Source: an uncultured Coprobacillus sp.
GTDB lineage: Bacteria; Bacillota_I; Bacilli_A; ML615J-28; CAG-698
Assembly: GCA_964385755.1 (NCBI GenBank)
Contig: CAYLPZ010000003.1
Span: 65,052-129,051 of the forward strand
Reading direction: 5' to 3'
DNA length: 64,000 nt
Made by a program: the position numbers and the translations under genes. Below the pieces are notes generated by a model that was given only the letters and a program-made list of their open reading frames with translations, did no database searches and was not told the origin of the DNA. Below, piece after piece: positions 22,811-54,433 of the stretch. How positions within the stretch are numbered: the first letter of the stretch is position 1; each line of letters opens with the position of its first letter.

Positions 22811-23161
22811 TTATTCCACCGTGTTAATAACCAAAAACGGCTTACGCCCGAATTTGTCCACAAGGGGACGGTAGAAAATAATAAGCAACGTTACCGGATA
22901 GGAAATAAAACCTATGGCGGAAAAGAGCGATAATCCCTCGCCGTATTCCATACCCATATTTTTTACGAAGAATTCCGTAACTATATTCGCCTGAAACTGA
23001 ATGGATATAGTAGACGCTATTTCGTCCGTTATGAAGATGAGCGACAAAATCATAAACAAGTAAGTCAGATAAAACTTGTTGCTTCTTGCGCCCAACTGTT
23101 TTTCGCGGCGGATAAGTTCTTTGGCTTCGCGCGCCTGTAATCGTTCAACGTTTTTTGCCAA
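22811..23161 (-). pseudogene. N-terminal fragment of an MFS transporter, truncated at island boundary
   Basis: The 116-aa ORF ends with PLVDKFGRKPFLV, the MFS loop 2-3 signature. The reading frame stops exactly at the left compositional boundary. Confidence 0.45.
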
Positions 23162-23199
23162 GCGGTAAGCTTTCTCCCGCTTTTTGCTTTTTGTTTATC

Positions 23200-24258: not shown

Positions 24259-24501
24259 TTTATTTTCCTCCGAGTAATATATAGTTGTACCATAAGCATA
24301 CCACGCCTTTTGATAAAATGCAATATGATATACGAATAAATATACTGAAAATTTTATTTTGTAAAGGTAAAATGCCCTATCAGTTGGATAAGTGAAAATA
24401 TAAGAAACAAAAAAAGCCCGAACCTTTTTCCAATGGTAAAAAAGTTCAAGCCATTTGCGTTTGGTGACCCTGTGCCCAAGAAAGTCTAACCTATAAAATG
24501 G

Positions 24502-25350
24502 TTAAATATAATAAATAGTCAAATAGTAGTTATGCCAAAGCCCAAAAGCAAATTCGGTATAAGTCGAAGATGAGGTATTACCTAAATTTATCTCACTCAA
24601 CGACGGGCGCGTCAAATAATAAGATGCTGAATTATAATTTTGAAATATGTGCCACATTACCACCAATTTGCCTTTTCCCGTAGCAACGTGAGCTTTATAT
24701 TGATAAGCCGCCAACTGATTTTCGGTTATGCCTGTTGTGTAATACCTTTCAGCAGAATTTTCGCTATCAAAAAGATAAAAATACTCGCAATCGACAAAAT
24801 CGGAACTCAATAAATTTAAAAGAGCAGTATTGTTGTCAACAGTAATTTTTTCTTCGCTGACACTTTCAATATCCGTAAGCTCGATAACCTTATAAATTAC
24901 GCCGACTTCGGTATCAAACGCCCCTTTCTCGGTAGCGATAGCGGTTATTTTTTCGTTAAGTTTAGCGTTTGTAGAAAGTACATAACGATTATTATCGACA
25001 TTTATTCCGTTCAATGAAATGCCGTAAGAGTTTGCGCCTTGTCGTATCGTAAACGAAGTGTTGTTGCCAGGCGCAGGCGGTTCATTACCTAAATTAGTAA
25101 GTTTGGCGGTAAGTACCAAATTAACTATTTCGTCTATATTGCTCTTATCTTCAATAGTAAACTGAAAGCCGTCCTTTTTTCCGTTATCGAAATCCACGTC
25201 TATTTTATCGCCACCCGAAAGCATATCCGAATAAAATTCAATATCGCTTATTGCGTTTATTTGATTAGCCTTATCGGTACAGCCAGCAAACGCAAATAAT
25301 GCTATACAAGTAATAGCCGATAATAAAAACGCTATAACAGTTTTTTTCAT
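24502..25350 (-). CDS. lipoprotein of unknown function (island cargo)
   Basis: Signal plus lipobox (ALFAFAGCTDK). No recognisable domain. Confidence 0.4.
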   Translation of the reverse strand: MKKTVIAFLLSAITCIALFAFAGCTDKANQINAISDIEFYSDMLSGGDKIDVDFDNGKKDGFQFTIEDKSNIDEIVNLVLTAKLTNLGNEPPAPGNNTSFTIRQGANSYGISLNGINVDNNRYVLSTNAKLNEKITAIATEKGAFDTEVGVIYKVIELTDIESVSEEKITVDNNTALLNLLSSDFVDCEYFYLFDSENSAERYYTTGITENQLAAYQYKAHVATGKGKLVVMWHIFQNYNSASYYLTRPSLSEINLGNTSSSTYTEFAFGLWHNYYLTIYYI

Positions 25351-25365
25351 ATCATTACACCCTTA

Positions 25366-25402
25366 TTTAATTTTTCACTATTATATCTTTTTCACTATTA
25401 TA
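25366..25402. repeat. two tandem 17-bp direct repeats TTTTTCACTATTATATC (iteron-like)
   Basis: Exact repeat copies at 25366-25382 and 25386-25402. They sit in the intergenic region next to the origin-like hairpins and the Rep gene. Confidence 0.45.
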
Positions 25403-25470
25403 TCATACGCAAGTCTTTTTAGCAATAGCTTAAGTGGGATAAACACTTATTAAAATTAAAAGGGCAGTTA

Positions 25471-25525
25471 TGCGTGAGCTTGTCTTGACGAGCGCGCGAC
25501 TACGCCGCGCGGACAAGCTCACGCA
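25471..25525. promoter_or_regulatory. GC-rich nested stem-loop (14-bp perfect stem TGCGTGAGCTTGTC / GACAAGCTCACGCA enclosing a CGCGCG...CGCGCG sub-hairpin): candidate rolling-circle origin
   Basis: Read directly. A second nested hairpin AAGGGCG...CGCCCTT lies at ~25576-25616. The Rep gene is ~750 bp downstream. Confidence 0.4.
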
Positions 25526-25780
25526 ACAAAATAAATAAATCGACTAAATAAACGTATTTGAAAGCCGAGCGGAAGGGCGTTCGCCGCTGAACCGCTTGGC
25601 GATTCGCCCTTTCCTCTCGCTCTGCGGTGATTTCAAATAATATCGTTTTATTACAGCCGATTTGCTTTTCTTTTTGTTGGCGGTGGGGCTTTTCCGCTTA
25701 ATCGTCGCAGAGATTAACCCTAATTCCGCTCGCTTTGTTCATAACTGAAAAATTTTTTTAAAAAATATACAAACATTTGT

Positions 25781-25809
25781 TTGACTTTTAAAATTGTTGG
25801 TTATATAAT
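25781..25809 (+). promoter_or_regulatory. strong sigma-A-type promoter (-35 TTGACT, 17 nt, -10 TATAAT)
   Basis: TTGACT at 25781-25786 and TATAAT at 25804-25809. Confidence 0.5.
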
Positions 25810-25815
25810 AATCAA

Positions 25816-26104
25816 ACGCACAAAAAAGTGCGAGTGCAATTTAATATTGGAACTGCGTCAATAGGAAATCTATTGTGCAGCTAAAACAGCAGACCAGAGG
25901 TTAAGTTAAGGAGCAAAGTAGCGATTAAGCGAAAGCCGGTTCACCCCCAACAAAGAAAAGGTGCAGAGTTGCGTTTTGATAAGAGAGAAGATAGCACACT
26001 CTTATTCTATTAAGGGAATATAATATTCTCTTAATTTTAACGGGCGATGTACAAAGTTTTATGAGATTAAGTTCTCGTAAGATTTTGTACATCGCCCTTT
26101 TTTC
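25816..26104 (+). ncRNA. candidate ~290-nt non-coding RNA bounded by promoter and a strong intrinsic terminator
   Basis: No convincing ORF. The terminator at the end is GGGCGATGTACAAA-n28-TTTGTACATCGCCC followed by a T-run, and it sits upstream of the Rep gene. Confidence 0.3.
26042..26104 (+). terminator. intrinsic terminator (14-bp stem, long loop, T-run CTTTTTTCG)
   Basis: Read directly from the sequence. Confidence 0.55.
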
Positions 26105-26280
26105 GTGCAAATTTTCGAAACGGAGGACAGAAATTTGCAGGAAAACAAGACAAAAAAAGACATTGAGGTCAGGAGTATCGGAAAGCCGAACATTTCGGCA
26201 TTATCCGAGAGTGAACAGGCGGTATTCTACGCCACCCTATTAAAGCGAATAACGGAGCTTGTAAAAGGGGGTGATAGAAA

Positions 26281-27165
26281 ATGAACTTAATCGGCGCAAA
26301 GGTTTACTTTGACGGCAGACATTGGATAGCTATTCGCCATACCGAACGAAGTTCCAAACGGCGAAGAAAGAGCATTAAGGCGCAGGACGACCCCACGGTT
26401 GAACAGTTTGAAAAGTCGTTTAACAAGACAACAAAGGGTAGAAATTCGAAGAAAAAAGAAAGCCTTTTGAAAGAGTTTTTACCCCACTTTGACAGCGAAA
26501 GCGAAGCTACGGAATTTGTAGAAACGCAGTTTGAACGGCTTAACCGCAACCGCATTGAAAGATTTAAAAGGTTAAAGCGAAAGGCGTATTTACAGCAATG
26601 GCACTACTTTTGCACTTTTACCTATGCGGACGGCAAGCAGACCGAAGAGAGTTTCAGAAAGCAGTTAATGAACTGTTTATACCATTTGGCTACACGAAAG
26701 GGTTGGAGATATATCGGAGCTTGGGAACGTGGTGAAGATAACGGAAGATTACACTTTCACGCTTTGGTCTATATACCGCCCGACGGTATGGTTGGAGAGT
26801 TTGAAGAACGTAACGATTTCAGCTTTAAAGCTCATAAACGGCAGGTTACTAATCAAAATACGTTTTTCAACGAGCGGTTTGGGCGTAACGATTTCGACAA
26901 GATTTCACATCAAATCGAAGTCGAGAACAGCGTTTACTATATGCTCAAATACATAACCAAGAATGACGAAAAGGTCGTTTATTCAAGGGGGTTAAAGAGC
27001 TATATCGTAGCGGACATTTTGGAAGAAGATATACTCTGCCCTTATGGTGATGACGAGAATGAATACAAATTTATACTTTCAGACGATTTCACCTGCATTA
27101 CGGACGGCGAGATTTTGGGAAAGGTCAGTCCCGAAGTCATAGAAAAAATGCCGAAAAGTAACTGA
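26281..27165 (+). CDS. rep: rolling-circle replication initiator (HUH endonuclease superfamily Rep)
   Basis: Motif I FCTFTYAD, motif II HFHALVY (HUH) and motif III VYYMLKYITKN (YxxKYxxK, the two-tyrosine type seen in phiX174 gpA-like and plasmid Reps). The basic N-terminal region is preceded by RBS AAAGGGGGTG. Confidence 0.6.
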   Translation: MNLIGAKVYFDGRHWIAIRHTERSSKRRRKSIKAQDDPTVEQFEKSFNKTTKGRNSKKKESLLKEFLPHFDSESEATEFVETQFERLNRNRIERFKRLKRKAYLQQWHYFCTFTYADGKQTEESFRKQLMNCLYHLATRKGWRYIGAWERGEDNGRLHFHALVYIPPDGMVGEFEERNDFSFKAHKRQVTNQNTFFNERFGRNDFDKISHQIEVENSVYYMLKYITKNDEKVVYSRGLKSYIVADILEEDILCPYGDDENEYKFILSDDFTCITDGEILGKVSPEVIEKMPKSN

Positions 27166-27364
27166 CCAAGAGTTTTTGTCTATCGACTTGCAGAGCGTAA
27201 ACGAAAACCCACGCTGTTGCAAGGGTAAAATGCACTACTTTCGTAGCCCTTGCATCAGCGCAGGAATAAGCCATAAAAAACGCTAAACAATGGCTTTCCG
27301 TTTGTTCGCCCCTTGTCGAAAGACAAAAGTTAAAAATCTATTTTAAAAGGAGTTTAAATTAAGA

Positions 27365-28846
27365 ATGAAAAAAGCAGTTATATATGCAAGATACTCTTGC
27401 GATAAGCAAACCGAACAATCAATCGAGGGTCAGTTGAGAGTTTGTCAGGAATATGCCAAAAGGAATGATATTCTAATTCTTAACACCTACATTGACCAAG
27501 CTATGTCAGGTACGAATGACAATCGTCCTGATTTTAAGAAAATGATTAAAGACAGCGCAAAGCGTGAATGGGATTTCGTACTCGTTTACAAACTTGATAG
27601 GTTTTCAAGAAATAAGTACGAAGCTACAATTCACAAGAAAACGTTAAGAGATAACGGTGTTAAGGTTATATCCGCTATGGAGAACATACCAGACACCCCC
27701 GAAGGAATTATCCTTGAAAGCCTACTTGAAGGAATGAACCAATACTATTCCGCAGAGCTTTCTCAAAAGGTTAAGCGTGGTATGAAAGAAACAAGATTAA
27801 AAGGTTATTACCAAGGCGGTGGCGTTCCGTATGGATATAAAATAGACGGACGAAAGGTTGTAATTGACGAAGAAAGAGCCGAAGTTGTCAGATATATGTA
27901 CGACGAATTTTCAAAGGGCGTAATCGTCAAAGATATTGTTAAGGCTTTGACCGATATGGGTAAGACCTACCGTGGTAAGCCGTTTGCGATGAACACAGTT
28001 TACGGAATACTGCGCAACGAAAAGTACATAGGAGTTTATAGAATTAACGACGAAGTTATAACCAATATGTACCCCAAGATAGTTGACGAACCTATTTTCA
28101 ACCGAGTAATAGCCATATTAGAACGTAATAAACGTGGTAGTCGCAGTCAAGAAACCAATTACCTATTAAAGCACAAATTAAAGTGCGGTTATTGCGGTAA
28201 CAATATCAACGGTGAATATGCTAAATCTCATACAGGAGCGAGCTTTTACTACTATAAATGCCGTGGTCGTAAATCGAAGTTAGCGGACTGTAAAAAAGGT
28301 ACTATTCAAAAGGATTGCCTTGAAAATCTTGTAATCGGTAACACCATAAAAGAGTTAAGCGACCCTATGAATATGCAGACGATTATTAACGGTATTCTTG
28401 AAATGCAAAGGCGAAACCTAAAAGAAAATTCCAAGTTAGCAGAGCTTAAAAGGGAACAGCGAGAGATTGAGATTGCCATTGACAACACTATGAAAGCGAT
28501 AGCACAAGGAGTTATTACAAAATCTACGGGGCAGTACCTTAAAACCTATGAAGAAAGGCAAGAAGAAATTATTAAGCAGATTGCCATTGAGCAGAGTAAG
28601 GAAACGGTTTTATTGACCGAAAAGGAAATTAGAAAGTTTTATGAAGATGCTTTAAAACTTGAACCTCAAATGCTTATAAATTACCTTGTAAAAGAGATAG
28701 TGTTATACGATAACCGAGCAGACATTATCTACACAAGTCCATTAAAATCTACGGATAGTCCTGACGATAGTCAGGGCTTTTCTTTTTACTCTAAAACGGT
28801 TAGAATTAAGAATAGGTACTTTATTATAACGCTGTATATCAAATGA
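27365..28846 (+). CDS. large serine recombinase (resolvase catalytic domain + recombinase domain + zinc ribbon)
   Basis: The N-terminus AVIYARYSCDKQTEQSIEGQ carries the catalytic Ser. VYKLDRFSRN, the recombinase domain GVPYGYKIDGRKVV and the zinc ribbon CGYCGNNING...YYYKCRGRK are present. RBS AAAGGAG. Confidence 0.8.
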   Translation: MKKAVIYARYSCDKQTEQSIEGQLRVCQEYAKRNDILILNTYIDQAMSGTNDNRPDFKKMIKDSAKREWDFVLVYKLDRFSRNKYEATIHKKTLRDNGVKVISAMENIPDTPEGIILESLLEGMNQYYSAELSQKVKRGMKETRLKGYYQGGGVPYGYKIDGRKVVIDEERAEVVRYMYDEFSKGVIVKDIVKALTDMGKTYRGKPFAMNTVYGILRNEKYIGVYRINDEVITNMYPKIVDEPIFNRVIAILERNKRGSRSQETNYLLKHKLKCGYCGNNINGEYAKSHTGASFYYYKCRGRKSKLADCKKGTIQKDCLENLVIGNTIKELSDPMNMQTIINGILEMQRRNLKENSKLAELKREQREIEIAIDNTMKAIAQGVITKSTGQYLKTYEERQEEIIKQIAIEQSKETVLLTEKEIRKFYEDALKLEPQMLINYLVKEIVLYDNRADIIYTSPLKSTDSPDDSQGFSFYSKTVRIKNRYFIITLYIK

Positions 28847-28925
28847 TATACGGCAATTTATTCCACAGTGCTATTGACAAGAGCCTCCAAGGCGTGTGGT
28901 ATTCAGGCAAAGAGCCAAATACCCA

Positions 28926-28950
28926 AGCCCTTGGGGGCTTTTGATTTGCC
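28926..28950 (+). terminator. intrinsic terminator after recombinase gene (AAGCCC-ttgg-GGGCTT + TTTGATTT)
   Basis: Read directly. It is embedded in a larger imperfect inverted repeat. Confidence 0.45.
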
Positions 28951-29397
28951 GTTGGCTGATAGCCTACCACACGCCATTCTCTTATCAATAGCCTTTTGCG
29001 GCATAAAGTGCCGTAAATAGCAAGCCAAATATAAGCGTTTTAAGGCTTGATTTTTCAGGTTGAAGAAATATTGCAAGACATAAAGAAAAGCCGTACAGAG
29101 CTATTCTGCGCGAATTAAAGGAGCGAAAAACAAAAGCCGAACCTCTCATTTGTGAAAAGTTCGACTTTGTTAAGTGTTGGTGACCCGTACGGGAATCGAG
29201 ACGGTGAGCAATAAAAAAGAAGGATACCTTCGGACTGTTTAATTAGGGATTTTCTAAAAACAGTCTAAAAGTCGGCTCAGAACAAAAAAACCACATCCAA
29301 GAGTTTATAAGCTCAAGGGGGTGGCTTTTTGTTGCTCAAATAAGCAATAGATACAATTAATAGTTTAAAATATTAGTGTAAAATTGCTTAATTTGAG

Positions 29398-29601
29398 GTG
29401 AAAATTATGATTTATGGGTACACAAGAGTAAGTACTAGAAAACAAGTTGACGGTTACGGGTTAGAGGTACAAAAAAATGAAATTTTGAGCAAATATCCTA
29501 CTGCCACCATAATTGATGAACAATACACGGGTACTAAATTAGATAGACCCGTTTTTAACGCACTTTTAGAAGGCTTGCAGAAGATTATATTGATTATATG
29601 A
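29398..29601 (+). pseudogene. N-terminal 60-aa fragment of a small serine recombinase (resolvase/invertase), truncated
   Basis: MIYGYTRVSTRKQ...GLEVQKNEI...RPVFNALLEGLQK is the catalytic-Ser motif of resolvases. The frame then ends after IILII, where the 120-aa remainder is missing. Low-GC DNA. RBS GAGGTG. Confidence 0.5.
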
Positions 29602-42643: not shown

Positions 42644-44008
42644 CTATTTGTTAAATAGATTGCTAATTCTATCTTCATCAAGATGCGAACCAATAACACA
42701 TACTCTACCAGTATAATCAGCATCGCCTAAACGAATTTCATAGTCCCCAGCAACATAATCAAAATAATACCATTTTTCATTATCTGATGCTTTAATAATA
42801 CCTTTACTTCTTAAAACTTCACCTATTGACTCATCTTTTAAAGCCTCTAAGAAAGTAGTAAGTTCTTCTTTACTTTTTGCTTTAGCTGTTTCGATTCCCC
42901 AACTAGTAAATACTTCATCAGCATCATGGTGATGATGGCATGAACATTCTGGATCATCACATTCTCCCTCATGGTGGTGGTGATGATGACATGAACATTC
43001 TGGATCATCACATTCTCCCTCATGGTGGTGGTGATGACAACATTCATGTTCGTCTTCATCGTGGTGATGGTGGTGACAGCATTCATGTTCTTCATCTTCA
43101 TCGTGGTGATGGTGGTGACAACATTCATGTTCGTCTCCCTCATGGTGGTGGTGACAGCATTCATGTTCATCATCTTTCTCATGGTGGTGGTGACAGCATT
43201 CATGTTCTTCATCTTCATCATGGTGATGGTGGTGACAACATTCATGTTCTTCATCTTCATCATGGTGATGGTGGTGACAACATTCATGTTCATCTTCATC
43301 GTGATGATGGTGGTGACATGAGCATTCTGGATCATCACATTCTCCCTCATGGTGGTGGTGATGTCTATCTTCTTTCGCTTGTTTTTGTAAGTCTTCAAGC
43401 ATTGTGTTTAGTAAATCAACTTTTGATTCTAAAGTAGATAATAATTTTTCACCATCTAACTCTTTAAGAGATGTTGTAATAATTGTAGAATTACCATTAA
43501 TTGATTTTAAAACTTCTAATGTTTCATTAAGTTTATTCACATCTATCTTATCTACTTTCGCAACCACTATTGTATTAGCTTCAGAAACTTGATCGATAAA
43601 GAACTCACCGAAGTTTCGTGCATACATTTTAGCTTTTCCACCATCTACAACAGTTGCAACAATATTTAAAACAAGTTTGTCACTATGCTTTGCACAAGCT
43701 TTTTTAATGTCAGATAGTTTTCCAACTCCAGATGGTTCAATAATTATACGTTCTGGTGCATATTTTTCTATTACTTCATCTAATGATTTATTAAAGTCAC
43801 CAACTAATGAACAGCATATACAACCACTATTTATTTCTTTAATATTAATGCCTGATTCTTTTAAGAAAGAACCATCGACACCAATTTCTCCAAATTCATT
43901 TTCAATAAGTACTATTTTCTCTTTTTTAAAAGCTTCTGCGAATAGTTTTTGAATAAGTGTTGTTTTACCAGCTCCTAAAAAACCTGATATAATATCTAGT
44001 TTAATCAT
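42644..44008 (-). CDS. COG0523 metallochaperone GTPase with ~150-aa His/Cys/Asp/Glu-rich repetitive insertion
   Basis: GFLGAGKTT, ENEFGEIGVD and the GCICCS metal-binding motif are present. A run of about 12 repeats follows (HECCHHHHHDEDEE, EGECDDPECSCHHHH), and then the CobW C-terminal domain. Confidence 0.7.
   Translation of the reverse strand: MIKLDIISGFLGAGKTTLIQKLFAEAFKKEKIVLIENEFGEIGVDGSFLKESGINIKEINSGCICCSLVGDFNKSLDEVIEKYAPERIIIEPSGVGKLSDIKKACAKHSDKLVLNIVATVVDGGKAKMYARNFGEFFIDQVSEANTIVVAKVDKIDVNKLNETLEVLKSINGNSTIITTSLKELDGEKLLSTLESKVDLLNTMLEDLQKQAKEDRHHHHHEGECDDPECSCHHHHHDEDEHECCHHHHHDEDEEHECCHHHHHDEDEEHECCHHHHEKDDEHECCHHHHEGDEHECCHHHHHDEDEEHECCHHHHHDEDEHECCHHHHHEGECDDPECSCHHHHHHEGECDDPECSCHHHHDADEVFTSWGIETAKAKSKEELTTFLEALKDESIGEVLRSKGIIKASDNEKWYYFDYVAGDYEIRLGDADYTGRVCVIGSHLDEDRISNLFNK
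42925..43360. repeat. intragenic tandem repeat (units ~36-48 bp, ~10-12 copies) encoding the His/Cys-rich region
   Basis: Visible periodic recurrence of catgaacattctggatcatcacattctccctcatggtggtggtgatg and catgttcttcatcttcatcgtggtgatggtggtgac. It produces spurious long ORFs in several frames (42847..43398, 42940..43437, 43022..43321). Confidence 0.7.
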
Positions 44009-45835: not shown

Positions 45836-46768
45836 CTATTTTTTATTTACTGTACTTCCGCCGCTACTAACTACATCCATTATTCCATCTAAAGTTTCGT
45901 ATTCAAGTTTACTTGCGCCGGATAGTTTTGCTTCAAACAAAGATATAAACGATAGTTCTAATAAAGATGCGGAAGAAATAGTTGCTTTACCACTATTTAA
46001 CGTCATATCAAACATTTTAACACTTGATGCACCAGATGCATCAATTGAACCATATGTTGCAATGCCAGAAGTAATAATTTTTGATGCACCACTTAATTTA
46101 AATTTTAAATTATTAATACTACTATCAATAATTTCAGCATATGAGGCACCACTAAGCTCAACATCGATATTTTCAAATATGTTCGTATTTGAAACTAAAC
46201 TAGATACTCCACTTAAATCAATATCTGCCTCTATAGCTTTTATATGCTCAATTTTCATTGATGATGCACCGCTTAAACTAATAAATAATTCTTGTGTTTC
46301 AATTTCATCGACTATAACACTTGAAGCACCTGAAAAGTCTAAATCTAACTTAGTAATTGACATAGAGCTTTTAGATATTCTTCCTGTAACATTTGCAAGA
46401 TCAATTTCATTAAAAGTATATCCATAAACGTAAATCTCTATTTTTTTAGTAACATAGTTTTTATATTTATTTCCAGAAATAATTAATTCATTACCAATCT
46501 TGTTAACACTAATTTCCTCAAGTAAATCAACAGATGCTTTTATCACAACTTTATTATCTTCGTTTGCTTCTTTATCAATTATATATACATTAGGCCCGAA
46601 AAAATTTCCTTGTTGTCTTAAGTGAATATCTTTTATCTCTAGTTCATTTACATCAACTATATTATATACTTTTTCTGAAAATTCTTCTGATACTTCTTGA
46701 TCACTTCTACAACCAATCATTGTTATAATAAAAATAAAACAAGTAATAAAAAATATGATTTTTTTCAT
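45836..46768 (-). CDS. DUF2807/GIN-domain (putative adhesin head) lipoprotein
   Basis: Lipobox MIGCRSD. The repeated beta-strand pattern LSGASS / SGAS every ~20 aa is typical of DUF2807. Confidence 0.5.
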   Translation of the reverse strand: MKKIIFFITCFIFIITMIGCRSDQEVSEEFSEKVYNIVDVNELEIKDIHLRQQGNFFGPNVYIIDKEANEDNKVVIKASVDLLEEISVNKIGNELIISGNKYKNYVTKKIEIYVYGYTFNEIDLANVTGRISKSSMSITKLDLDFSGASSVIVDEIETQELFISLSGASSMKIEHIKAIEADIDLSGVSSLVSNTNIFENIDVELSGASYAEIIDSSINNLKFKLSGASKIITSGIATYGSIDASGASSVKMFDMTLNSGKATISSASLLELSFISLFEAKLSGASKLEYETLDGIMDVVSSGGSTVNKK

Positions 46769-46993
46769 TTATATATCTCCTTTTACAATTATCTAAAAAA
46801 TAAATTTTCCATAATTTATTTTATCTCATTTTTTCCCACTTTTACATAATATTTTTCTCTTTAATAAATCTATGTTAAAGTATTATTATATAAAGCCAAC
46901 AGTTTTGATTTTCAGTTGGCTTTTCTTTATTGTTCTTCTATTGCATGGATTACATATTTAATTTGGAATTAGATGAGTTGCTTATCAATTAAT

Positions 46994-47848
46994 CTATTCC
47001 TCCTCTTCATAATAATATGAGTAATCTATTCCTTTCATAAATATATCTCTATCTTTAATATTATCAGTTAATGCTTTATTTAATAAATCGAATATAGGTT
47101 TAGAATTTGTTGGACTTAATTTCATCGCATTTAAGTAATCATTTTTTTCAATTTTAGACCAATCAATGCATTTTTGAATTCTTTCTTTCAATAATAAATC
47201 AAGCCAAATTCTAGTAGATCTTCCATTGCCTTCCATAAATGGATGAGCAATATTCATTTCAATATACTTATCTATTATTTTTGTAAATGTATCATCAGGC
47301 ATTTTATCGATATCAAGTAGCACTTGTGACAAATAATCACCATTAGCAAAAACAAAACCGGCTTTAGATATAGTTTTAGTTCTAATTTGACCTGCAAAAT
47401 CATAGATACCTTCAAATAAATAAGCATGTATTTGTTGTAACAATTTGGTTTTACCTACATATAATAAATCTAATATATTAGATTCAAATAAAGTTTGAGC
47501 CTTCCTTTTGCTCTGCTCATCTATTGGATCCATACTTCCAGCAACCCAATTATTAAAATCTAGATTGTTTTTGTTTTTCAAGATGATACCAAGTCTTTTA
47601 ACACCAGACTCATCAATCACATCATTCAGATATTTTTTGCCATCATTTGAATATAATTTTAGTTGTCTACAAAATGTATTCAACTCTGGATTTCTTCTTT
47701 TTATGGCATTCCAGTATATTCTTGGATTTTTTGAATCTGTTAAAGCAAAAACAATATCAGTTGCGGAATACCACCACTTATTATTTTCATTATCCCAAAT
47801 TGCTCTTACCTGTTTGTTTAAAAATGTTCTAATCGAATGTTTAATCAT
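46994..47848 (-). CDS. BRO-N domain + Fic (Fido) domain protein
   Basis: The N-terminal VRAIWDNENNKWWYSATDIVFAL is BRO-N / antirepressor-like. The C-terminal HPFMEGNGRSTR is the canonical Fic motif HxFx(D/E)GNGRxxR. Confidence 0.7.
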   Translation of the reverse strand: MIKHSIRTFLNKQVRAIWDNENNKWWYSATDIVFALTDSKNPRIYWNAIKRRNPELNTFCRQLKLYSNDGKKYLNDVIDESGVKRLGIILKNKNNLDFNNWVAGSMDPIDEQSKRKAQTLFESNILDLLYVGKTKLLQQIHAYLFEGIYDFAGQIRTKTISKAGFVFANGDYLSQVLLDIDKMPDDTFTKIIDKYIEMNIAHPFMEGNGRSTRIWLDLLLKERIQKCIDWSKIEKNDYLNAMKLSPTNSKPIFDLLNKALTDNIKDRDIFMKGIDYSYYYEEEE

Positions 47849-48003
47849 ACATAAATTATATCATAATTAATTTTAGTTGTCTACAATTTGTATACAACTA
47901 TGATATTTCTTTAACTCATACTCTAATTATTCCGAAATTATAGGCTAAATAAATAGAATATATTCCTTGTTATTACTTTTGTAGTTTTGTTTGACATGTT
48001 TTC

Positions 48004-48227
48004 TTACACATATGTATACCTTTTTTTATAATCATCAAATGACATCTTATTAATTTCTGATATCAATGAGTGATTATTTATTTGTTCTTCAACATAATGC
48101 CATCCACATACTGTGCAAAAATCATCTTCCATCTTTATTCCTTCTTTAATCTCTTCATCAGAAAGAGTTTCAAAATAATAACCACTGCAAACAGGACATA
48201 ATGTTTTTTTTACTTTATTTCACCCAT
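48004..48227 (-). pseudogene. small zinc-ribbon protein gene (LCPVCSGYY...CTVCGWHY) lacking an in-frame start in this copy
   Basis: The 69-aa frame has two CxxC pairs. An intact homologous start MGRNKVKKILCPICSGYYFE exists in repeat copy B at 50026. Here a 1-nt difference (ggtgaaat vs ggtagaaat) puts the ATG out of frame. Confidence 0.3.
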
Positions 48228-48352
48228 ATTTTTCCTCTTTTTTGTTCGAGCTAGGTTACCTAGCTTCGTAATATTAAATTTACAAAAAACTAATGTTCTG
48301 AGTAAATTTCTTATCTTGTTGATAAAGATAGACAACTAATTAATTTTTAATT
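48122..48352. repeat. mosaic intergenic repeat, copy A (segment Y)
   Basis: About 230 bp, roughly 93 % identical to 49913-50131. Confidence 0.6.
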
Positions 48353-48437
48353 AAAATATTTTTAAACCTTATATTATATTTCTGCAAAATTCTTACTTAA
48401 AATAATATATAATATAGTAAATGTGTTTTTATTTTTT

Positions 48438-48534
48438 GTAACTTGTGACAATTTTGTAAAGTGTTATACTTGCTTTTTAAGGTTTTTTTGGTATAATATT
48501 TTTGTAAAGCGTAACTTGTGACAATTTTGTAAAG
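48438..48534 (+). promoter_or_regulatory. two 24-bp direct repeats GTAACTTGTGACAATTTTGTAAAG bracketing a promoter (-35 TTGCTT 48470-48475, 16 nt, extended -10 TGgTATAAT 48489-48497) for the ATPase gene
   Basis: Exact repeat copies at 48438-48461 and 48511-48534; the second overlaps the RBS AAGGTG. Confidence 0.45.
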
Positions 48535-48546
48535 TAAGGTGCAACT

Positions 48547-49800
48547 ATGATAATTAAAAGAGATTTATATTTAAACAAATTGATTGAACGAAAGCATAAT
48601 GGTTTAATCAAAGTGATTACTGGAATTCGTAGATGTGGAAAATCTTTTCTTTTATTTAAACTTTTTAAAAATCATTTACTATCTGAAGGTGTAAAAGAAG
48701 ACCACATCATAGAACTTAACTTTGATGATTTTGATAATGAAGAATACCAAAATCCGAAAGTTACTTCCCCTTATTTAAAAGGTAAAGTTGTTGATTCAGA
48801 TATGTATTATTTTTTATTAGATGAAATTCAACTTCTTGGTAAATTCGAAGCTGTTTTAAATGGTTTATTAAGACTTGATAATGTTGATATTTATGTTACC
48901 GGAAGTAATGCTAAATTTTTATCTAAAGATGTAATAACAGAATTTAGAGGACGTGGTGATCAAGTTCATATTTATCCACTTTCTTTTAAAGAATTCTTTG
49001 AAGCTAGAAATATTGATAGAATGACTGCTCTTGAAGAATACTTAACATATGGTGGTATTCCTTTAATATTATCAATGCAAACACATGAAGCTAAATCCAA
49101 CTTTTTACATAACCTCTTTATTGAAACTTACTTAAAAGATATTATCAATAGAAACAATTTAACCAACAATAATGAATTAAAAGAATTAGTAAATATTGTT
49201 TCTTCTTCTATTGGTTCATTAACAAACCCAACTAAACTATCTAATACCTTTAAAAGTGTTAAAAACATAAACTTGTCCGTTCCAACAATCAGCAAATACT
49301 TAGAATATTTAACTGATTCATTTTTAATACATAAGGCAATTCGTTATAATATTAAAGGCAGAAAATATATTGATACTCCAAGTAAATATTATTTTTCAGA
49401 TCTTGGCATTAGAAACGCTTCTATTAACTTCCGTCAAAATGAAAAAACTCATTTAATGGAAAACTTAATTTATAACGAATTATTAATTAGGGGATATAAT
49501 GTAGATGTTGGTGAAGTTCCTTTGGTTGTTAGAGATGAAAACAAAACACAAATTAGAAAGACATTAGAAGTTGATTTTGTATGCAACCTAATTGATAAAC
49601 GATTATATATTCAATCAGCATATTCATTATATGATGAAGAAAAATACCTTCAAGAAACACGATCTCTTTTAAACATTAAAGATAATTTTAGAAAGATAAT
49701 TATCACATATGATTATGGTCGTAAACATTATACTAATGATGGTATTATTATCATGAGTTTATTTGATTTCTTACTTGATCCTGATTCATTAAATTATTAG
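48547..49800 (+). CDS. COG1373 AAA+ ATPase (AAA_14 + DUF4143 architecture)
   Basis: Walker A ITGIRRCGKSFLL and Walker B-like YYFLLDEIQ. Length 417 aa. Confidence 0.65.
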   Translation: MIIKRDLYLNKLIERKHNGLIKVITGIRRCGKSFLLFKLFKNHLLSEGVKEDHIIELNFDDFDNEEYQNPKVTSPYLKGKVVDSDMYYFLLDEIQLLGKFEAVLNGLLRLDNVDIYVTGSNAKFLSKDVITEFRGRGDQVHIYPLSFKEFFEARNIDRMTALEEYLTYGGIPLILSMQTHEAKSNFLHNLFIETYLKDIINRNNLTNNNELKELVNIVSSSIGSLTNPTKLSNTFKSVKNINLSVPTISKYLEYLTDSFLIHKAIRYNIKGRKYIDTPSKYYFSDLGIRNASINFRQNEKTHLMENLIYNELLIRGYNVDVGEVPLVVRDENKTQIRKTLEVDFVCNLIDKRLYIQSAYSLYDEEKYLQETRSLLNIKDNFRKIIITYDYGRKHYTNDGIIIMSLFDFLLDPDSLNY

Positions 49801-49843
49801 TCTATTTGCAATAATAGGCTTTTTCTTTACTTTAATTATTAAA

Positions 49844-50131
49844 TTTCAGCTTCTAATTCTTCTTTTGATATTAATCCTTCTTCAATTAACCTATTAAGTT
49901 CGGCTTTTTTCATTTTCCATCTATATTCCTTCTTTAATCTCTTCATCAGAAAGACTTTCAAAATAATAGCCACTGCAAATAGGACATAATATTTTTTTTA
50001 CTTTATTTCTACCCATATTTTTCTCCTTTTTGTTTGAGCTTGGTTACCTAGCTTCGTAAGATTAAATTTACAAAAAACTAATGTTTTGAGTTAATTTCTT
50101 ATCTTGTTGCTAAAGATAGACAACTAATTAA
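49844..50131. repeat. mosaic intergenic repeat, copy B (segments X+Y)
   Basis: 49844-49927 matches 51996-52080 (segment X) and 49913-50131 matches 48122-48352 (segment Y). On the minus strand it encodes MGRNKVKKILCPICSGYYFESLSDEEIKEGI* and, in another frame, ...EYRWKMKKAELNRLIEEGLISKEELEAEI*. Confidence 0.6.
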
Positions 50132-50238
50132 TTTTTAAAAGGTTTAAAATTTTCTTTGAGAGGTAATAAAAATTACCTTACAGAGTAAAAAATTAACCTT
50201 TCTATTTGATTTCTTCTTTTTAATTTGATATAATATCA

Positions 50239-50991
50239 TTGGTGGTAGTGATGAAATATTTAAATGAATTAACAAAATATAAAGTTTTTAACAGAAAAGA
50301 TTTTGCAACTATGATAAATGATGATAATTTAGCAAAAATGCTTTTACAAAACTATTTAGAAAAAGGCTATATAAAACGTATTAAACATAATTTATATGGT
50401 GTTGTAAGTCTAGAAACTAATGAATGTATAGCTGACAAATTTTTAATTGCTTCTAATATTACAGACACTTCTTTTATATCACATCATTCTGCATTTGAAT
50501 TTTATGGTTATTATAATCAAGTTTATTATGATGTAAATGTATCTTCTATCTCTAAATTTAATACCTTCGAATTTGAAGAAAACAAATTTTCTTTAATTAA
50601 AGTATCTTCTACAAACTTAGTTGAAGAAATACGTGGTGTTAAGGTTACTTCAATAGAGAGAACTATAGTAGATTCAATTAAAGATTCTGGTAAATATTGT
50701 GAGTTAGAAGAAACATTAAACTGCATCAATATGATTCCATACATTTCAACAAAAGAAATTTTAAAGTATTTAGATCAAATAAATTCAAAAATGCTTTATA
50801 AAAAAGTTGGTATTATTTTATCTCTATTTAAAGATAAACTAAACATTCCTGATTCTTTCTTTGATATATGCCATGAAGTATCCGATTCAATTAAGGGACA
50901 TTTTGATAAAAATAAAAGTGCTCATGTATATAATTCCGAATGGAAAATATTTATTTACAAAGACTTAAGAAATTACATTAACAAGGAATGA
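50239..50991 (+). CDS. abiEi: AbiEi-family antitoxin (type IV TA, wHTH N-domain)
   Basis: GYIKRIKHNLYGVV (the AbiEi_4 G.l.R..rGvY motif) and VKVTSIERTIVDSIKD are present. Confidence 0.6.
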   Translation: MVVVMKYLNELTKYKVFNRKDFATMINDDNLAKMLLQNYLEKGYIKRIKHNLYGVVSLETNECIADKFLIASNITDTSFISHHSAFEFYGYYNQVYYDVNVSSISKFNTFEFEENKFSLIKVSSTNLVEEIRGVKVTSIERTIVDSIKDSGKYCELEETLNCINMIPYISTKEILKYLDQINSKMLYKKVGIILSLFKDKLNIPDSFFDICHEVSDSIKGHFDKNKSAHVYNSEWKIFIYKDLRNYINKE

Positions 50992-50995
50992 TCAT

Positions 50996-51954
50996 ATGTT
51001 CAATTACAAAAAACACGAAATAGTAGCATTAGCTAAAGACAATGGTTTTAGAAGTGAAACTTTAGAAAAAGTTCTTAGATTAATAGACGTATTAGATTTT
51101 ATAAGTAAAACAGATGAACTTTCTCCTTATTTAGTACTTAAGGGGGGACATCAATTAACTTTACGGTATTTAATCTTCCTAGACTAAGTGTCGATATTGA
51201 TTTAGATTTTTCCTTTAGTGGTACTAGAGAAGAAATGTTAAATAAAAGAAAAGAAATCACCGCTATCATCAGAAGATATATGGAAATTAACAACTACAGT
51301 ATTAATGATGAAACCAAATCAAAACATGCATTAGATTCGTTTGTATTTAATTACAATAATAACTTTGGAAACAAAGATAACTTGAAAATTGAAATTAACT
51401 ATATGAATAGAACACACGTATATGAAACAATCACAAGAAATGTTTCTATATCTTTTTTAACTTCTTTTAAAACATTAACATCGAATAAATATGAACTATA
51501 TGGTTCTAAAATTAAGGCACTTATTGAAAGATGTACTATTAGAGATGTATATGATGTTTACCATATGCTTAAAGAAAATTTATTTAATGAATCCGAATTT
51601 AATTTAGTAAAGAAATGTGTAATATTCTATATGGTAATTGGTAAAACTACTGATAGACCATTTAACGAAGTGTTAATCGACTTTGAAACGAAAATTAATG
51701 CATATATGGTAGACAAAGTACCACAATACCTTTCTTCAACTCTTAAAAAAGATGATAAATTTTCGATGATTGATTCCGCAAATATGGTTAAAGATTTTGT
51801 TTCAACTTTAATGAAATTAAATGAATTTGAAACTAAATTTATTAACGAGTTTGAAAATAGTAATTATTGTCCTGAACTTCTATTTGATGATAACGAAATT
51901 ATTAATAGAATCAAAAATCATCCAATGGCATTATGGAAAATATCAAACAAATAA
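50996..51954 (+). pseudogene. abiEii: AbiEii/AbiGii-family nucleotidyltransferase toxin (DUF1814), interrupted by a frameshift at a G6 tract (51142-51147)
   Basis: Frame 1 gives LVLKGGHQLTLRYLIFLD*. The neighbouring frame continues NLPRLSVDIDLDFSFSGTREE... A G7 tract would restore LVLKGGTSINF..NLPRLSVDIDLDF, the AbiEii consensus. Confidence 0.55.
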
Positions 51955-51995
51955 CAAGTCACATTAACTTCCTAGAAATGGGAAGTTTTTTACAT

Positions 51996-52080
51996 TTTCG
52001 CTTCTAATTCTTCTTTTTATATTAATCCTTCTTCAATTAACCTCTTAAGTTCGGCTTTTTTCATTTTCCATCTATATTCT
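51996..52080. repeat. mosaic repeat, copy C (segment X), carrying small minus-strand ORF MSYLLSKSIELTKQVDEEAYEVFLEYRWKMKKAELKRLIEEGLI
   Basis: About 90 % identical to 49844-49927. Confidence 0.55.
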
Positions 52081-52254
52081 AAAAAAACTTCATAGGCTTC
52101 TTCATCAACCTGTTTAGTTAATTCAATTGATTTACTTAATAAATAACTCATTTGATTTAACTCTTGCTTCCTAAGGCAACTTGCAATGGATCAACCAATT
52201 TCTAATTTGTTTAATCACTACATACTCAATATGTTAATCATAATATTTGCTATC

Positions 52255-52422
52255 AATTATTCGTGATATAGGTTTTCCTTCTACAACTAAATCACCATAA
52301 GTTGAAAAATCTCTCTTTATGAAAGCATCCCATAATTCTAAGTTGTTATACATAGCACTAATGACAATAGATGCAATCGTATTAAAATCATATTTTCTAT
52401 ATATCTAATAATATAAATTCAA
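52255..52422 (-). pseudogene. orphan C-terminal gene fragment (..TIASIVISAMYNNLELWDAFIKRDFSTYGDLVVEGKPISRIIDSKYYD*) without start
   Basis: An open frame of 55 codons bounded upstream by a stop, with no start codon. Confidence 0.2.
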
Positions 52423-52478
52423 ATAAAGTATTTTCTTATATTCATTTAGTCCTAATTTCCAATATTTATCCAAGAATA

Positions 52479-52991
52479 TCACCTAGTCCTTTCATCCGTT
52501 ACAATATGCTCAATTCCAACATGATCTCGGCATAAATAATCTTTCATGAAAGTAGGAAATGCTTTGTAATTGTCCAATTCATTAATTGGTATCCAATACA
52601 TATTTTCTTTTACACCAAATGTTGTACTATTGCTATGCAGTTCCTGCGTACCTCTTGGTTTCATCAAATAATAAAAACATACTTCATGACAATCCAGTCC
52701 GGCCAATGTTCCTTTATTCTCATCGAAAAAATTTTCATGAATTACAGCCAAACGATCAATATCATACGCAACCCCTGTTTCTTCAAAAACTTCCCTTTTT
52801 ACTGCATCCTCAGCAGTTTCTCCCATATGGACACCACCGCCGATAGAGTAATAATAGTCTTCTAGTTCATTCCCTGCAAACAAAACACAGCCATCCTCAA
52901 CAATAATAGCAGCTGCTCTATATCGAAACCATTTATTTTCTTTTGTAAAACCACAATCATATTCCTTCATCATTTTCATCCCTTTTTCCAA
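52479..52991 (-). CDS. NUDIX hydrolase
   Basis: Nudix box GGGVHMGETAEDAVKREVFEETGV. Confidence 0.7.
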   Translation of the reverse strand: MEKGMKMMKEYDCGFTKENKWFRYRAAAIIVEDGCVLFAGNELEDYYYSIGGGVHMGETAEDAVKREVFEETGVAYDIDRLAVIHENFFDENKGTLAGLDCHEVCFYYLMKPRGTQELHSNSTTFGVKENMYWIPINELDNYKAFPTFMKDYLCRDHVGIEHIVTDERTR

Positions 52992-53101: not shown

Positions 53102-54421
53102 TTAAACTGAGTCTTTACGTGACAGTAAACAAACGGTTTCCACATGATATGTACAAGCAAACATATCAACTAAAGATACTTTTTCCACTTTATAATTCTT
53201 AAGCATACTTATATCCCTTGCTAAAGTTTTTGCTTCACATGAAACATAAACTATCTTTGGTACTTTCATTTCTTCAACAGCATGCAAAAATTCTTTTGTT
53301 GAACCACATCTTGGAGGATCCATAATTAGTACATCAAACTTTTCATCGGTATTTAATATATAGTTTGTAGCATCATCACAGACAAAACTCATATTTGTTA
53401 TTTTGTTTTCTTTCGCATTTACTCTTGCGTTAAGCACTGATTGTTTGTTGTTTTCCACACCAATTACTCTTTTTGCGTTTTTGCTTAATATCATTCCTAT
53501 AGTACCAACTCCACAATAAGCATCTAATACTTTTTCACATCCTGTAAGATTAGCATATTCTTTTACGATACTATAAAGTATTTCTGTTTGTCTTGGATTT
53601 ATTTGGTAGAATGTTTTTGATGATATTTTAAAGTTTATCCCTGATAGTGTATCGTTTATATACCCAGGGCCATACAATACTCTTTCTTCATCACCTAATA
53701 TTATACTAGTTTTTCTAGTATTTACATTTTGTACTATTGATGTGATATAAGGGCATCTTGCCTTTAGTCTTTTCACAAATTCATTTCTTCCAGGAAAAAT
53801 ATCTGAGTTTGTTACAATTGTTACTAATATTTCTTTTGAATAATAACCTTCTCTTATCATTACAAAACGAATCAATCCTGTGCGTTTATCTTCTTGATAA
53901 ACTTGCAACCTTAGTTCTTTTATTATGTCACAAACTACTTTTACAATTTCATTTTGTCTATCTGATTGAACTAAACATTTCTTTAAAGGAATTATTCTAT
54001 GGGAATCTTCTTCGTAAAAACCATATACTATTTTACCTTCTTTGATGCCAAAAGCTACTTGCATTTTGTTTCGGTAGCCTTCTTTAACTAAAGAAGATAC
54101 ATATTTATCTAATTTAAAAAGGATTTTATATTCTCTAAAGCAGCTTTCAACATAATCTTTTTTAAAGTTTTCCTGAGCTTTATCATTCATGTGTAAAAGG
54201 TGGCACGAACCACATTTTAAATAATGTTCACATTTTGGTTCAACTCGTTCTTTACTTTTCTTTATAAAAGAAGATATATAATATTTACCTTTTTTATCTT
54301 TATCAGCTAATGCAACCTCGCCAACAAGTAAATTACTAGCATAGCCAATATCTTTTCCAACTTTAAATACACCTTGACCAAAATCATTATATGTAAAACA
54401 TTTAACTTCTATTTTTGCCAT
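53102..54421 (-). CDS. rlmCD: 23S rRNA (uracil-C5)-methyltransferase RlmCD/RumA family (TRAM + [4Fe-4S] + SAM MTase)
   Basis: Cys cluster CEHYLKCGSCHL. SAM motif DAYCGVGTIG. Catalytic region LIMDPPRCG. The preferred start MAKIEV is at 54421 with RBS AAAGGTGA; the track start is 54430. Confidence 0.75.
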   Translation of the reverse strand: MAKIEVKCFTYNDFGQGVFKVGKDIGYASNLLVGEVALADKDKKGKYYISSFIKKSKERVEPKCEHYLKCGSCHLLHMNDKAQENFKKDYVESCFREYKILFKLDKYVSSLVKEGYRNKMQVAFGIKEGKIVYGFYEEDSHRIIPLKKCLVQSDRQNEIVKVVCDIIKELRLQVYQEDKRTGLIRFVMIREGYYSKEILVTIVTNSDIFPGRNEFVKRLKARCPYITSIVQNVNTRKTSIILGDEERVLYGPGYINDTLSGINFKISSKTFYQINPRQTEILYSIVKEYANLTGCEKVLDAYCGVGTIGMILSKNAKRVIGVENNKQSVLNARVNAKENKITNMSFVCDDATNYILNTDEKFDVLIMDPPRCGSTKEFLHAVEEMKVPKIVYVSCEAKTLARDISMLKNYKVEKVSLVDMFACTYHVETVCLLSRKDSV

Positions 54422-54433
54422 AATAATCACCTT

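Follow-up and report, generated by a model that had tools for sequence, protein, structure and literature searches.

Does a cluster of defence-type genes amount to a working anti-phage or addiction island, or can it be what is left of the elements that once carried it? The question is raised by a ~5.5-kb stretch in an uncultured Coprobacillus sp. (GenBank assembly GCA_964385755.1, contig CAYLPZ010000003.1), which we analysed together with its surroundings as one window of 64,000 nucleotides (nt; contig positions 65,052 to 129,051). The stretch lies between a DUF2807 gene and the genes for a NUDIX hydrolase and a RumA-type methyltransferase (rumA). It holds a Bro-N/Fic gene, an AAA+ ATPase gene of the COG1373 type, an AbiE pair, an ‘orphan fragment’ and two families of repeats, all of which were located where an original prediction, made by a model that saw only the letters and a list of their reading frames, had placed them. 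The window has a G+C content of ∼25–30% and most of its genes lie on the minus strand; the plus-strand ATPase and AbiE genes oppose this prevailing direction. The stretch is a real but fairly ordinary accessory islet with three defence-type gene sets.

The islet probably goes back to two or more related, small mobilizable elements, of the type that combines a MobL-family relaxase with a large serine recombinase, which accreted and later decayed. Tandem accretions and decayed integrative mobilizable elements (IMEs) are reported to be frequent in Firmicutes (PMC9585547). In elements of the type proposed here, a cargo gene set would lie convergent with, and directly behind, the relaxase gene, and a non-coding promoter region would precede the cargo. 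One relic element would carry AbiE and the other the DUF4143 AAA+ ATPase, with the mobility genes of both deleted. Behind each cargo, the last 31 to 62 relaxase codons would be left (repeat A), and in front of it the promoter region together with codons 1 to 31 of a gene for a small CPCC protein (repeat B). The two elements would have been joined in tandem by a deletion with one end in the first element's CPCC gene and the other in the relaxase tail of the second, at a short microhomology, and the gene for Bro-N and class III Fic would come after the complete CPCC copy.

Repeat A is 93 nt long, and its two copies (94% identical) are the 3′ ends of relaxase genes. The relaxase is reduced in the window to two 3′ relics, of 31 and ∼62 codons, and its tail has the peptide pattern EYRWKMK.AEL.RL.EEGLISKEELEA. 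The orphan fragment of the original prediction is real (51987-52470, minus strand) but is not one piece: it consists of two relics with many stops, the larger relaxase relic and a relic of a gene homologous to P0001, a protein of 221 amino acids (aa). Its conceptual translation matched only six proteins among 5.8 billion. P0002 and P0003, which match the 3′ half of the fragment, carry the Pfam domain MobL (PF18555). The P0001-like relic matched no Pfam, NCBIfam or PADLOC family, and a HEPN-like RxxxxH motif that was seen in it by eye was set aside, being supported by no model.

Repeat B (∼240 nt, copies 91% identical) joins the start of the CPCC gene to the non-coding DNA before it; like repeat A, it has no further copy in the window. 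The longer CPCC copy is frameshifted in the window by a 1-nt deletion near 48221, and is intact, with 74 aa, in a second strain. Each cargo, AbiE or ATPase, sits between one copy of repeat B and one copy of repeat A. Read along the minus strand, the order is P0001 relic, relaxase relic, AbiE, repeat B copy 2 with a CPCC′ stub joined to a relaxase tail (repeat A), ATPase, repeat B copy 1 with the complete CPCC gene, and Fic. The CPCC′ open reading frame (ORF; 50016 to 49921, minus strand, 31 aa) runs out of frame into repeat A, and the joint lies in a 17/19-nt microhomology, GAATAWAGATGGAARATGA, which reads GAATAAAGATGGAAGATGA on the side of the CPCC gene and GAATATAGATGGAAAATGA on the side of the source of repeat A. 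It is most easily explained by a deletion that fused the CPCC gene in one element with the relaxase tail of its neighbour. The original prediction had omitted the chimera of CPCC′ and relaxase tail (49921-50016), along with the frameshifted CPCC gene (48004-48227) and a broken AbiEii gene described below. What it regarded as an unusual arrangement with ‘repeat-mediated modularity’ is no special design and consists of backbone relics, namely the relaxase tail and the CPCC promoter with the 5′ end of its gene.

Related contigs pair the same cargo with the same tail. Contig L061, 82% identical to positions 52172-50017 of the window and 88% identical to repeat B copy 1, carries an RHH-like ORF, a MobL relaxase in two ORFs, the oppositely oriented genes for AbiEii and AbiEi, the non-coding portion of repeat B (3653-3789, 88% identical to that of copy 1), a 101-aa ORF and a 593-aa large serine recombinase, in this order; the N-terminal MobL/Relaxase part of the relaxase was located upstream in this contig. 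L064, which matches 52369-52172 and 52099-51532, encodes a large serine recombinase and P0001, followed by a relaxase relic of 76 aa and by an oppositely oriented AbiEii. In L063, 91% identical to 49928-48640, an ORF that fuses the N-terminus of a phage-type methyltransferase to the relaxase tail is followed by the same ATPase on the opposite strand (locus at 8574-10264). The ATPase of L063 is split into an AAA_14 ORF (177 aa) and a DUF4143 ORF (175 aa) and lies beside spoIVA; the contig is another decayed copy of the unit of ATPase and relaxase tail in a different context. In L066, a 121-kb NCBI contig, an intact AbiE pair converges on a relaxase-tail ORF of 55 aa, in a segment 87% identical to 50125-52106. 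Both cargos are thus found again and again immediately behind the same relaxase tail, in two cases on a contig that also encodes a large serine recombinase. Scans of viral contigs with AbiEi and the relaxase fragment were empty, and a scan with the ATPase gave one distant hit (44%). Plasmid and phage collections contained no related element; the matches were at the level of domains only, with class III Fic on Enterococcus plasmids and scattered ATPase genes.

A further line of evidence comes from a contig of another strain, L011 (ENA, 5838 nt), which was assembled independently, covers 46691-52523 with 98.5% identity and has the same order and the same joint of repeats A and B. The copies of each repeat have diverged by 6–9%, the two strains by 1.5%, and the architecture is common to both; the copies therefore predate the split of the strains, and appear to stem from two related elements rather than from a recent duplication. 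Fic, ATPase and AbiEi differ between the strains by 0.94%, 0.56% and 0.13%. Divergence is ∼4–6% in both copies of repeat B and most intergenic spacers, ∼4% in the larger relaxase relic (A3), and only 0.7–2.2% in repeat A2, the CPCC gene, the spacer between Fic and CPCC, and the P0001 relic. The counts are small, and the pattern fits purifying selection on Fic, ATPase and AbiEi.

Several points weigh against descent from mobilizable elements. No integrase or recombinase gene was found between 46769 and 53101, no intact relaxase gene in or beside the islet, and no flanking direct repeats of the attachment (att) type around it. The aligned rumA 3′ flanks of four genomes did not share an att-like sequence. 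Look-ups of the exact ATPase, Fic, NUDIX, DUF2807 and RumA proteins returned only contigs of the same strain and no empty site, and the left boundary of the islet is undefined. Neither CPCC nor Fic turned up on any contig of a related element, and their derivation from such an element is therefore hypothetical. The reference elements come from short contigs of metagenomes, and an intact element with defined ends was never seen among them. As to the cargo, a single published test was found for each of the PADLOC candidate types PDC-S01 and PDC-S04, to which the ATPase and the Fic protein belong, and neither reported protection: the PDC-S01 representative does not figure among the systems that reportedly protected E. 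coli (10.1101/2024.09.26.614923), and the PDC-S04 representative gave no defence in its native host (10.1101/2024.12.20.629700). The window also has no RNA genes and no tRNA attachment site according to an Rfam scan of its whole length and a tRNA scan. The features of the islet are listed in Table 1.

Table 1. Features of the islet and its right flank, in window coordinates.
Feature	Position	Strand	Description and basis
Bro-N and class III NmFic-like Fic adenylyltransferase	46994..47848	-	284 aa, intact; Pfam, PADLOC, NCBIfam, PDB
Predicted Fic promoter	47855..47900	-	TAGACA-17-TATAAT with TG extension; sequence scan
CPCC gene	48004..48227	-	small Cys-rich zinc ribbon, frameshifted at codon 3; Pfam PF14206, comparison with L011
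Repeat B copy 1 (B1)	48122..48363		first ∼31 CPCC codons and ∼136 nt of upstream non-coding DNA
Two 25-nt direct repeats	48438-48462 and 48511-48535	+	perfect, bracketing the ATPase promoter; spacing 73 nt
ATPase	48547..49800	+	AAA_14 and DUF4143 (COG1373 type; PADLOC PDC-S01), 417 aa, intact
Repeat A copy 1	49836..49928	-	last 31 codons (EYRWKMKKAELNRLIEEGLISKEELEAEI, then stop) of MobL-family relaxase gene, convergent with ATPase gene
Repeat B copy 2 (B2)	49910..50156		truncated CPCC′ ORF joined to repeat A
AbiEi antitoxin/regulator	50239..50991	+	intact, 246 aa from ATG at 50251; PADLOC AbiEi
AbiEii (DUF1814) nucleotidyltransferase toxin gene	50996..51954	+	inactivated; split ORFs 50996-51187 and 51235-51954
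Terminator-like hairpin	51966..51987	+	between convergent AbiEii gene and relaxase tail
Relaxase 3′-end relic	51987..52172	-	∼62 codons, internal stop; repeat A copy 2 is 51987-52079
P0001-like relic	52173..52470	-	several stops; homologous to P0001
NUDIX hydrolase	52479..52991	-	right flank; domain scan, weak PADLOC PDC-S07 match (2e-7)
RumA/TrmA-family U5-methyltransferase	53102..54430	-	comparable islets adjoin a homologous gene in other genomes

AbiE belongs to the type IV toxin-antitoxin systems (PMC3985639), in which a nucleotidyltransferase toxin would be restrained by AbiEi. The pair announced by the original prediction is only half preserved. AbiEi matches two PADLOC AbiEi models at full length (4.7e-75 and 1.1e-74), the exact protein is present in other assemblies, and a promoter-like TTGATT-17-TATAAT precedes the gene (50206-50234). 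AbiEii, on the other hand, is split by a 1-nt deletion at 51144, which turns AAGGGTGGGACA into AAGGGGGGACA and leaves one ORF of 63 aa and another of 239 aa. The shift falls within the LKGGT motif, immediately before the conserved segment PRLSVDIDLDF. In L011 the gene is intact (322 aa, Pfam AbiEii 6.9e-23), and most database relatives have 319 aa. With AbiEii frameshifted, only AbiEi can be functional here. The order of the two genes, AbiEi followed by the DUF1814 nucleotidyltransferase AbiEii, is that of the AbiE systems of Lactococcus and Streptococcus agalactiae (PMC3985639, PMC7319586), and the stop/start overlap of these is seen in the intact L011 allele; the islet differs from them by its frameshifted toxin gene, which leaves just the regulator/antitoxin AbiEi to be made. 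At 50988-51010, a run of six A in the window and seven A in L011 switches the in-frame ATG (MFNYKK... versus MIICSITKK...), and the start of the window type, giving 319 aa, is the common form among database relatives.

The Fic gene carries the second candidate toxin. In its product, the Pfam Bro-N domain (residues 13-104) scores 28.1 bits at a cut-off of 25.6, and the Pfam Fic domain scores 49.7 bits; the active-site motif, of the type HxFx(D/E)GNGRxxR, is present as HPFMEGNGRSTR at residues 202-213. The PADLOC PDC-S04 model PDLC04841 is matched over its full length (1.7e-121, residues 2-284 on profile positions 3-292 of 292), and the NCBIfam NmFic equivalog NF046029 with 255.1 bits against a 230-bit cut-off. 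NmFic of Neisseria meningitidis (PDB 2g03/3s6a) aligns over the whole Fic domain (E=2e-62), as far as the C-terminal SYYYE, and has the same type of active-site motif. The SYYYEG segment of NmFic aligns with SYYYEE in the islet protein, including the glutamate and the tyrosines of the autoinhibitory helix; in NmFic, these tyrosines are autoAMPylation sites (PMC12894286). Compared with the inhibitory-helix motif [S/T]xxxE[G/N], the S and the inhibitory E are kept, and the last position is E, not G/N. The islet protein differs from NmFic by an extra N-terminal Bro-N domain of ∼100 residues, and the fusion of Bro-N and Fic is not a new architecture, as it is already modelled as PDC-S04. Fic proteins of the NmFic type are growth-arresting AMPylators of GyrB (PMC12894286). 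Judged by this likeness, the islet protein is probably an autoinhibited GyrB/ParE AMPylator: it would be held inactive by its C-terminal helix until release, and would then AMPylate GyrB/ParE and halt DNA replication. The Bro-N domain may be a DNA-binding module or a sensor, for example of a phage product.

The predicted promoter of the Fic gene, which can be written as TAGACA-17-TGATATAAT, has a -10 box whose end lies just 6 nt from the ATG; since a ribosome-binding site cannot be recognised either, the transcript may be leaderless. A near-palindrome of 27 bp (24/27) extends over 47874-47900 and overlaps the -35 box. The repeat at this promoter has a 35-nt copy, 89% identical, within the Fic gene (47654-47688), in the part that encodes residues 54-65 of Bro-N, and the two could be a putative autoregulatory operator pair. 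The 11-mer TTAGTTGTCTA occurs four times in the window, always in the islet, at 47659 and 47873 on the plus strand and at 48329 and 50117 as the reverse complement. Each occurrence overlaps a TAGACA -35-like box, either of the Fic promoter or of one plus-strand promoter-like site per copy of repeat B that faces the cargo; in copy 1, this site reads TAGACA-17-TAAAAT (48329-48357). The 11-mer may be a putative site for a shared regulator. CPCC as an antitoxin of Fic was considered and rejected: it has no [S/T]xxxE[G/N] motif, Fic has its own putative inhibitory helix, and CPCC was a neighbour in none of 46 loci with Fic homologues.

These toxin-like genes give room for the possibility that the gene sets were addiction or stabilisation modules of the former elements, with Fic and AbiEii as toxins and AbiEi as antitoxin, and had no anti-phage role; they would have been retained selfishly and would now be decaying. 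We hold this to be possible, though on balance improbable. It agrees with AbiE being a type IV toxin-antitoxin (PMC3985639), with the growth-arresting AMPylation of GyrB by Fic proteins of the NmFic type (PMC12894286) and with the loss of the mobility genes, and AbiEii has been broken independently at the same spot in two lineages (-1 nt in the window, +1 nt in L061). Moreover, ∼15 of the 75 closest AbiEii clusters in the database are truncated, at varied positions and in some cases possibly by contig ends only. Most AbiEii relatives are, however, intact with 319 aa, Fic and ATPase are intact and conserved between the strains, and no toxin role is known for the ATPase. A gene may serve both addiction and defence, and Fic, ATPase and AbiE may equally have stabilised the elements that carried them.

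The ATPase is a complete gene of a common family. Its AAA_14 and DUF4143 domains score 2.8e-31 and 1.3e-18 (Pfam), and the PADLOC PDC-S01 model PDLC04787 is matched over the full length (1.9e-119). It has a Walker A motif (GIRRCGKS, from residue 26), a Walker B motif (YFLLDE, from residue 88) and the motif EVDF (from residue 341). The predicted model has a predicted local distance difference test (pLDDT) score of 81.7 and matches Orc1/Cdc6-type and archaeal AAA+ proteins; its C-terminal domain resembles nuclease domains of the Can2/VC1899 type, at low template modelling (TM) scores only. The AAA+, winged-helix and nuclease-like domains of the model are those described for the candidate in the literature (PMC12988326), and no member of PDC-S01 has a demonstrated function. 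The protein is probably an Orc1/Cdc6-type AAA+ switch with a winged helix and a nuclease-like domain. As regards the canonical PD-(D/E)xK catalytic residues of the C-terminal domain, E305, D320, E341, D343 and K366 are invariant in the alignment of the ATPase, and the strand after EVDF is YIQSA, with Q356 invariant. An ExK motif would be expected at the strand that reads YIQSA in the subfamily of the window ATPase. Nuclease activity is uncertain because of this YIQSA strand, despite the invariant acidic residues and lysine.

The promoter of the ATPase gene is flanked by repeats of its own, as had been predicted: a perfect 25-nt direct repeat brackets the predicted promoter TTGCTT-16-TGnTATAAT. 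The second repeat copy touches the ribosome-binding site of the gene, and a third half-site, TTTTGTAAAG, lies at 48500-48509. Shuffled versions of the window reproduced no match like this one, and L011 keeps the two copies at 23/25 and 25/25. A layout of repeat, promoter and repeat also precedes a homologue of the ATPase, 50% identical, in L066 (6380-6489); there, the repeat is 39 nt long (copies 79% identical, spacing 71 nt) and has another sequence. The shared layout with a differing repeat sequence suggests a co-evolving operator, perhaps for the winged helix of the ATPase itself, and the ATPase may repress its own promoter through the 25-nt repeats. Such a layout before DUF4143 ATPase genes is a clue to the regulation of a very common and uncharacterised family. 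Relatives 88–98% identical to the window ATPase form dozens of clusters on many contigs of up to 208 kb; by contrast, look-ups of exact host proteins from the flanks led to just two sequencing runs, a hint that the ATPase module has spread recently.

Whether the three gene sets work together as a multi-gene anti-phage island, with the repeats acting as portable recombination cassettes that shuffle defence modules, is a separate matter, and we consider it unlikely. A PADLOC run, as recommended by the original prediction, returned strong matches for all three adjacent gene sets (PDC-S04, PDC-S01 and AbiEi, at the E-values given above), each cargo lies between a repeat B and a repeat A copy, Fic, ATPase and AbiEi are better conserved than the surrounding DNA, and the gene types recur in other combinations beside rumA-type genes (L002, L003, L066). 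The first and last of these points, the plus-strand orientation of the ATPase and AbiE genes and the return of the modules in other genomic settings partly support the original reading as an anti-phage or addiction island, but AbiE is the only experimentally validated defence type among the three, and its toxin gene is dead here. PDC-S01 and PDC-S04 are ‘guilt-by-embedding’ candidates (PMC12988326), for which the published tests reported no protection. Repeats A and B are plainly gene fragments with stops and frameshifts, and are conserved no better than neighbouring DNA. A conserved partner gene was absent from 46 metagenome loci with homologues of Bro-N-Fic (48–67% identity): a CPCC, AbiE or relaxase-tail neighbour was found at none of them, and an ATPase was adjacent in one. 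Most neighbours were housekeeping genes; a smaller share consisted of genes for type I restriction, ResIII, RhuM (PDC-S05), UzuA and WYL proteins. Cooperation of the gene sets is therefore unsupported, and a fixed system of Fic, ATPase and AbiE was rejected. A defence-finder run would list AbiE, PDC-S01 and PDC-S04 at this locus, and counting such loci as working immunity inflates defence repertoires.

The remaining explanations fare worse. In-place duplication of a chromosomal segment with CPCC and a gene X, followed by insertion of unrelated cassettes and involving no mobile-element ancestry, would account for the confinement of both repeat families to the islet within the window; it was already disfavoured and is very unlikely, as A and B are attached to the same cargo in unrelated contigs with relaxase and serine recombinase genes, repeat A is the tail of a relaxase gene, and the copies have diverged by 6–9%. 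Phase variation of AbiEii, with slippage in a G tract toggling the toxin, is less probable still. The six-G run at 51142-51147 is the only run of six or more G or C in the window, where 0.18 G runs were expected, and L061, whose lineage is 82% identical to the window, has an independent +1 frameshift at the same LKGGT codons (∼2625-2640). The intact L011 allele reads GGGTGGG, however, so that the window lost a T rather than altering the length of a G run; the change in L061 is an extra T after six G, and truncated relatives break at many different positions. We read AbiEii as dead in this strain by ordinary toxin decay and not by phase variation. Finally, a chimeric assembly, suggested by short-read Logan contigs of the same strain (two runs, 100% identical to the window) that break within the repeats, can practically be dismissed because L011, assembled independently, covers the islet from end to end in a single contig and in the same order.

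L011, the sole other strain found, has the same content as the window, with AbiEii and CPCC intact, and relatives at the level of the genus differ downstream of rumA; this points to the variability that the original prediction had proposed to look for, and speaks against a conserved syntenic core. The RumA-type methyltransferase of the window is 68–69% identical to those of uncultured Coprobacillus genomes, which suggests an Erysipelotrichales (Coprobacillus-like) host. In two of these, L002 and L003, genes of the AlbA_2/HATPase_c_4 type follow rumA, in L002 together with a DUF4143 ATPase. In L066, the AbiE pair has as neighbours the remains of an AlbA_2 gene and of a DUF4143 ATPase, another pair of AlbA_2/HATPase_c_4 and ATPase genes, and a RumA-type gene (its product is 42% identical, so orthology is uncertain). 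The varied gene content of these three makes the rumA side look like a recurrent landing place. The NUDIX gene may itself be accessory, since it is absent beside rumA in L002 and L003, and the right border of the islet may then shift to ∼53101. Across these RumA-type flanks (L002 4181-6935, L003 12229-13650, L066 5072-13843), genes of AlbA_2/HATPase_c_4 or HATPase_c_4 only, DUF4143 ATPase and AbiE occur in varied combinations, and the flank in L066 also holds internally deleted relics. AlbA_2/HATPase_c_4 and DUF4143 ATPase look like a recurrent pair, which is absent from the window.

A bolder extension, which we put forward tentatively and with considerable doubt, is that an undescribed family of small mobilizable elements (∼6–8 kb, encoding a large serine recombinase and a relaxase of the MobL family) exists in gut Erysipelotrichales and related Firmicutes. 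A slot behind its relaxase would take defence or toxin-antitoxin cargo (AbiE, DUF4143 ATPase, possibly Bro-N-Fic), its members would pile up and decay beside a RumA-type gene as staphylococcal cassette chromosome (SCC) elements do at rlmH, the cargo would outlive its vehicle, and AbiEii would be knocked out repeatedly. If the element family and the hotspot beside rumA hold up, they offer a handle for new cargo genes in poorly studied gut Firmicutes. The islet itself is a clear small example of defence-type cargo outlasting its vehicle, where each former element can still be recognised by its relaxase tail and promoter stub, and a microhomology deletion joint shows how two elements fused.

The closest known counterparts are the IMEs of Firmicutes and their tandem and decayed derivatives (PMC9585547). 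On the related contigs, too, a relaxase with MobL/Relaxase domains, a large serine recombinase and a cargo of small size occur together, and the islet shows tandem backbone relics, as described for accretions and defective elements; in the window, however, no recombinase, intact relaxase, oriT or att site accompanies the relics, and the element family is known here only from short contigs, never intact. The cargo is of the defence or toxin-antitoxin type, not antibiotic resistance. Mobilizable transposons of the Tn4451/Tn4453 type, which combine a large serine recombinase with a Mob protein, are an example of such elements. Composite islands of the SCCmec type in staphylococci accumulate serine-recombinase elements and their remnants beside an RNA methyltransferase gene, at the 3′ end of rlmH/orfX. 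Related islets similarly lie beside a RumA-type methyltransferase gene in four genomes, but no conserved attachment sequence was found in the rumA 3′ flanks, and the islet is separated from rumA by a NUDIX gene. Mobile elements can also contain defence hotspots, as in P2/P4 and in hotspot 5 of the SXT integrative and conjugative element. As there, AbiE or ATPase occupies the same place relative to a part of the backbone, here the 3′ end of the relaxase gene, although the sample comprises just two cargo types and a handful of contigs.

Two other loci of the window stand apart from the islet. A region at 23000-29600 has a G+C content of 38–42%, compared with 25–30% elsewhere, and looks like a separate integrated element. 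It encodes a rolling-circle Rep-like protein (26281-27165, Pfam REP_ORF2-G2P), a 493-aa large serine recombinase (27365-28846) and two ORFs without a Pfam family (23200-24258 and 24502-25350). Its recombinase was considered as the one missing from the islet and rejected, being 25% identical to the L061 enzyme, 18 kb away and part of this separate GC-rich island. The second locus is a gene for a CobW-family GTPase (42644-44008) with a long internal insert rich in His, Cys, Asp and Glu. The insert is built of degenerate tandem repeats with HHHHH(D/E)EDE(E)HECC units, encoded by DNA repeats at 42913-43363 that are 74–79% identical, and is probably a metal-binding or metallochaperone region.

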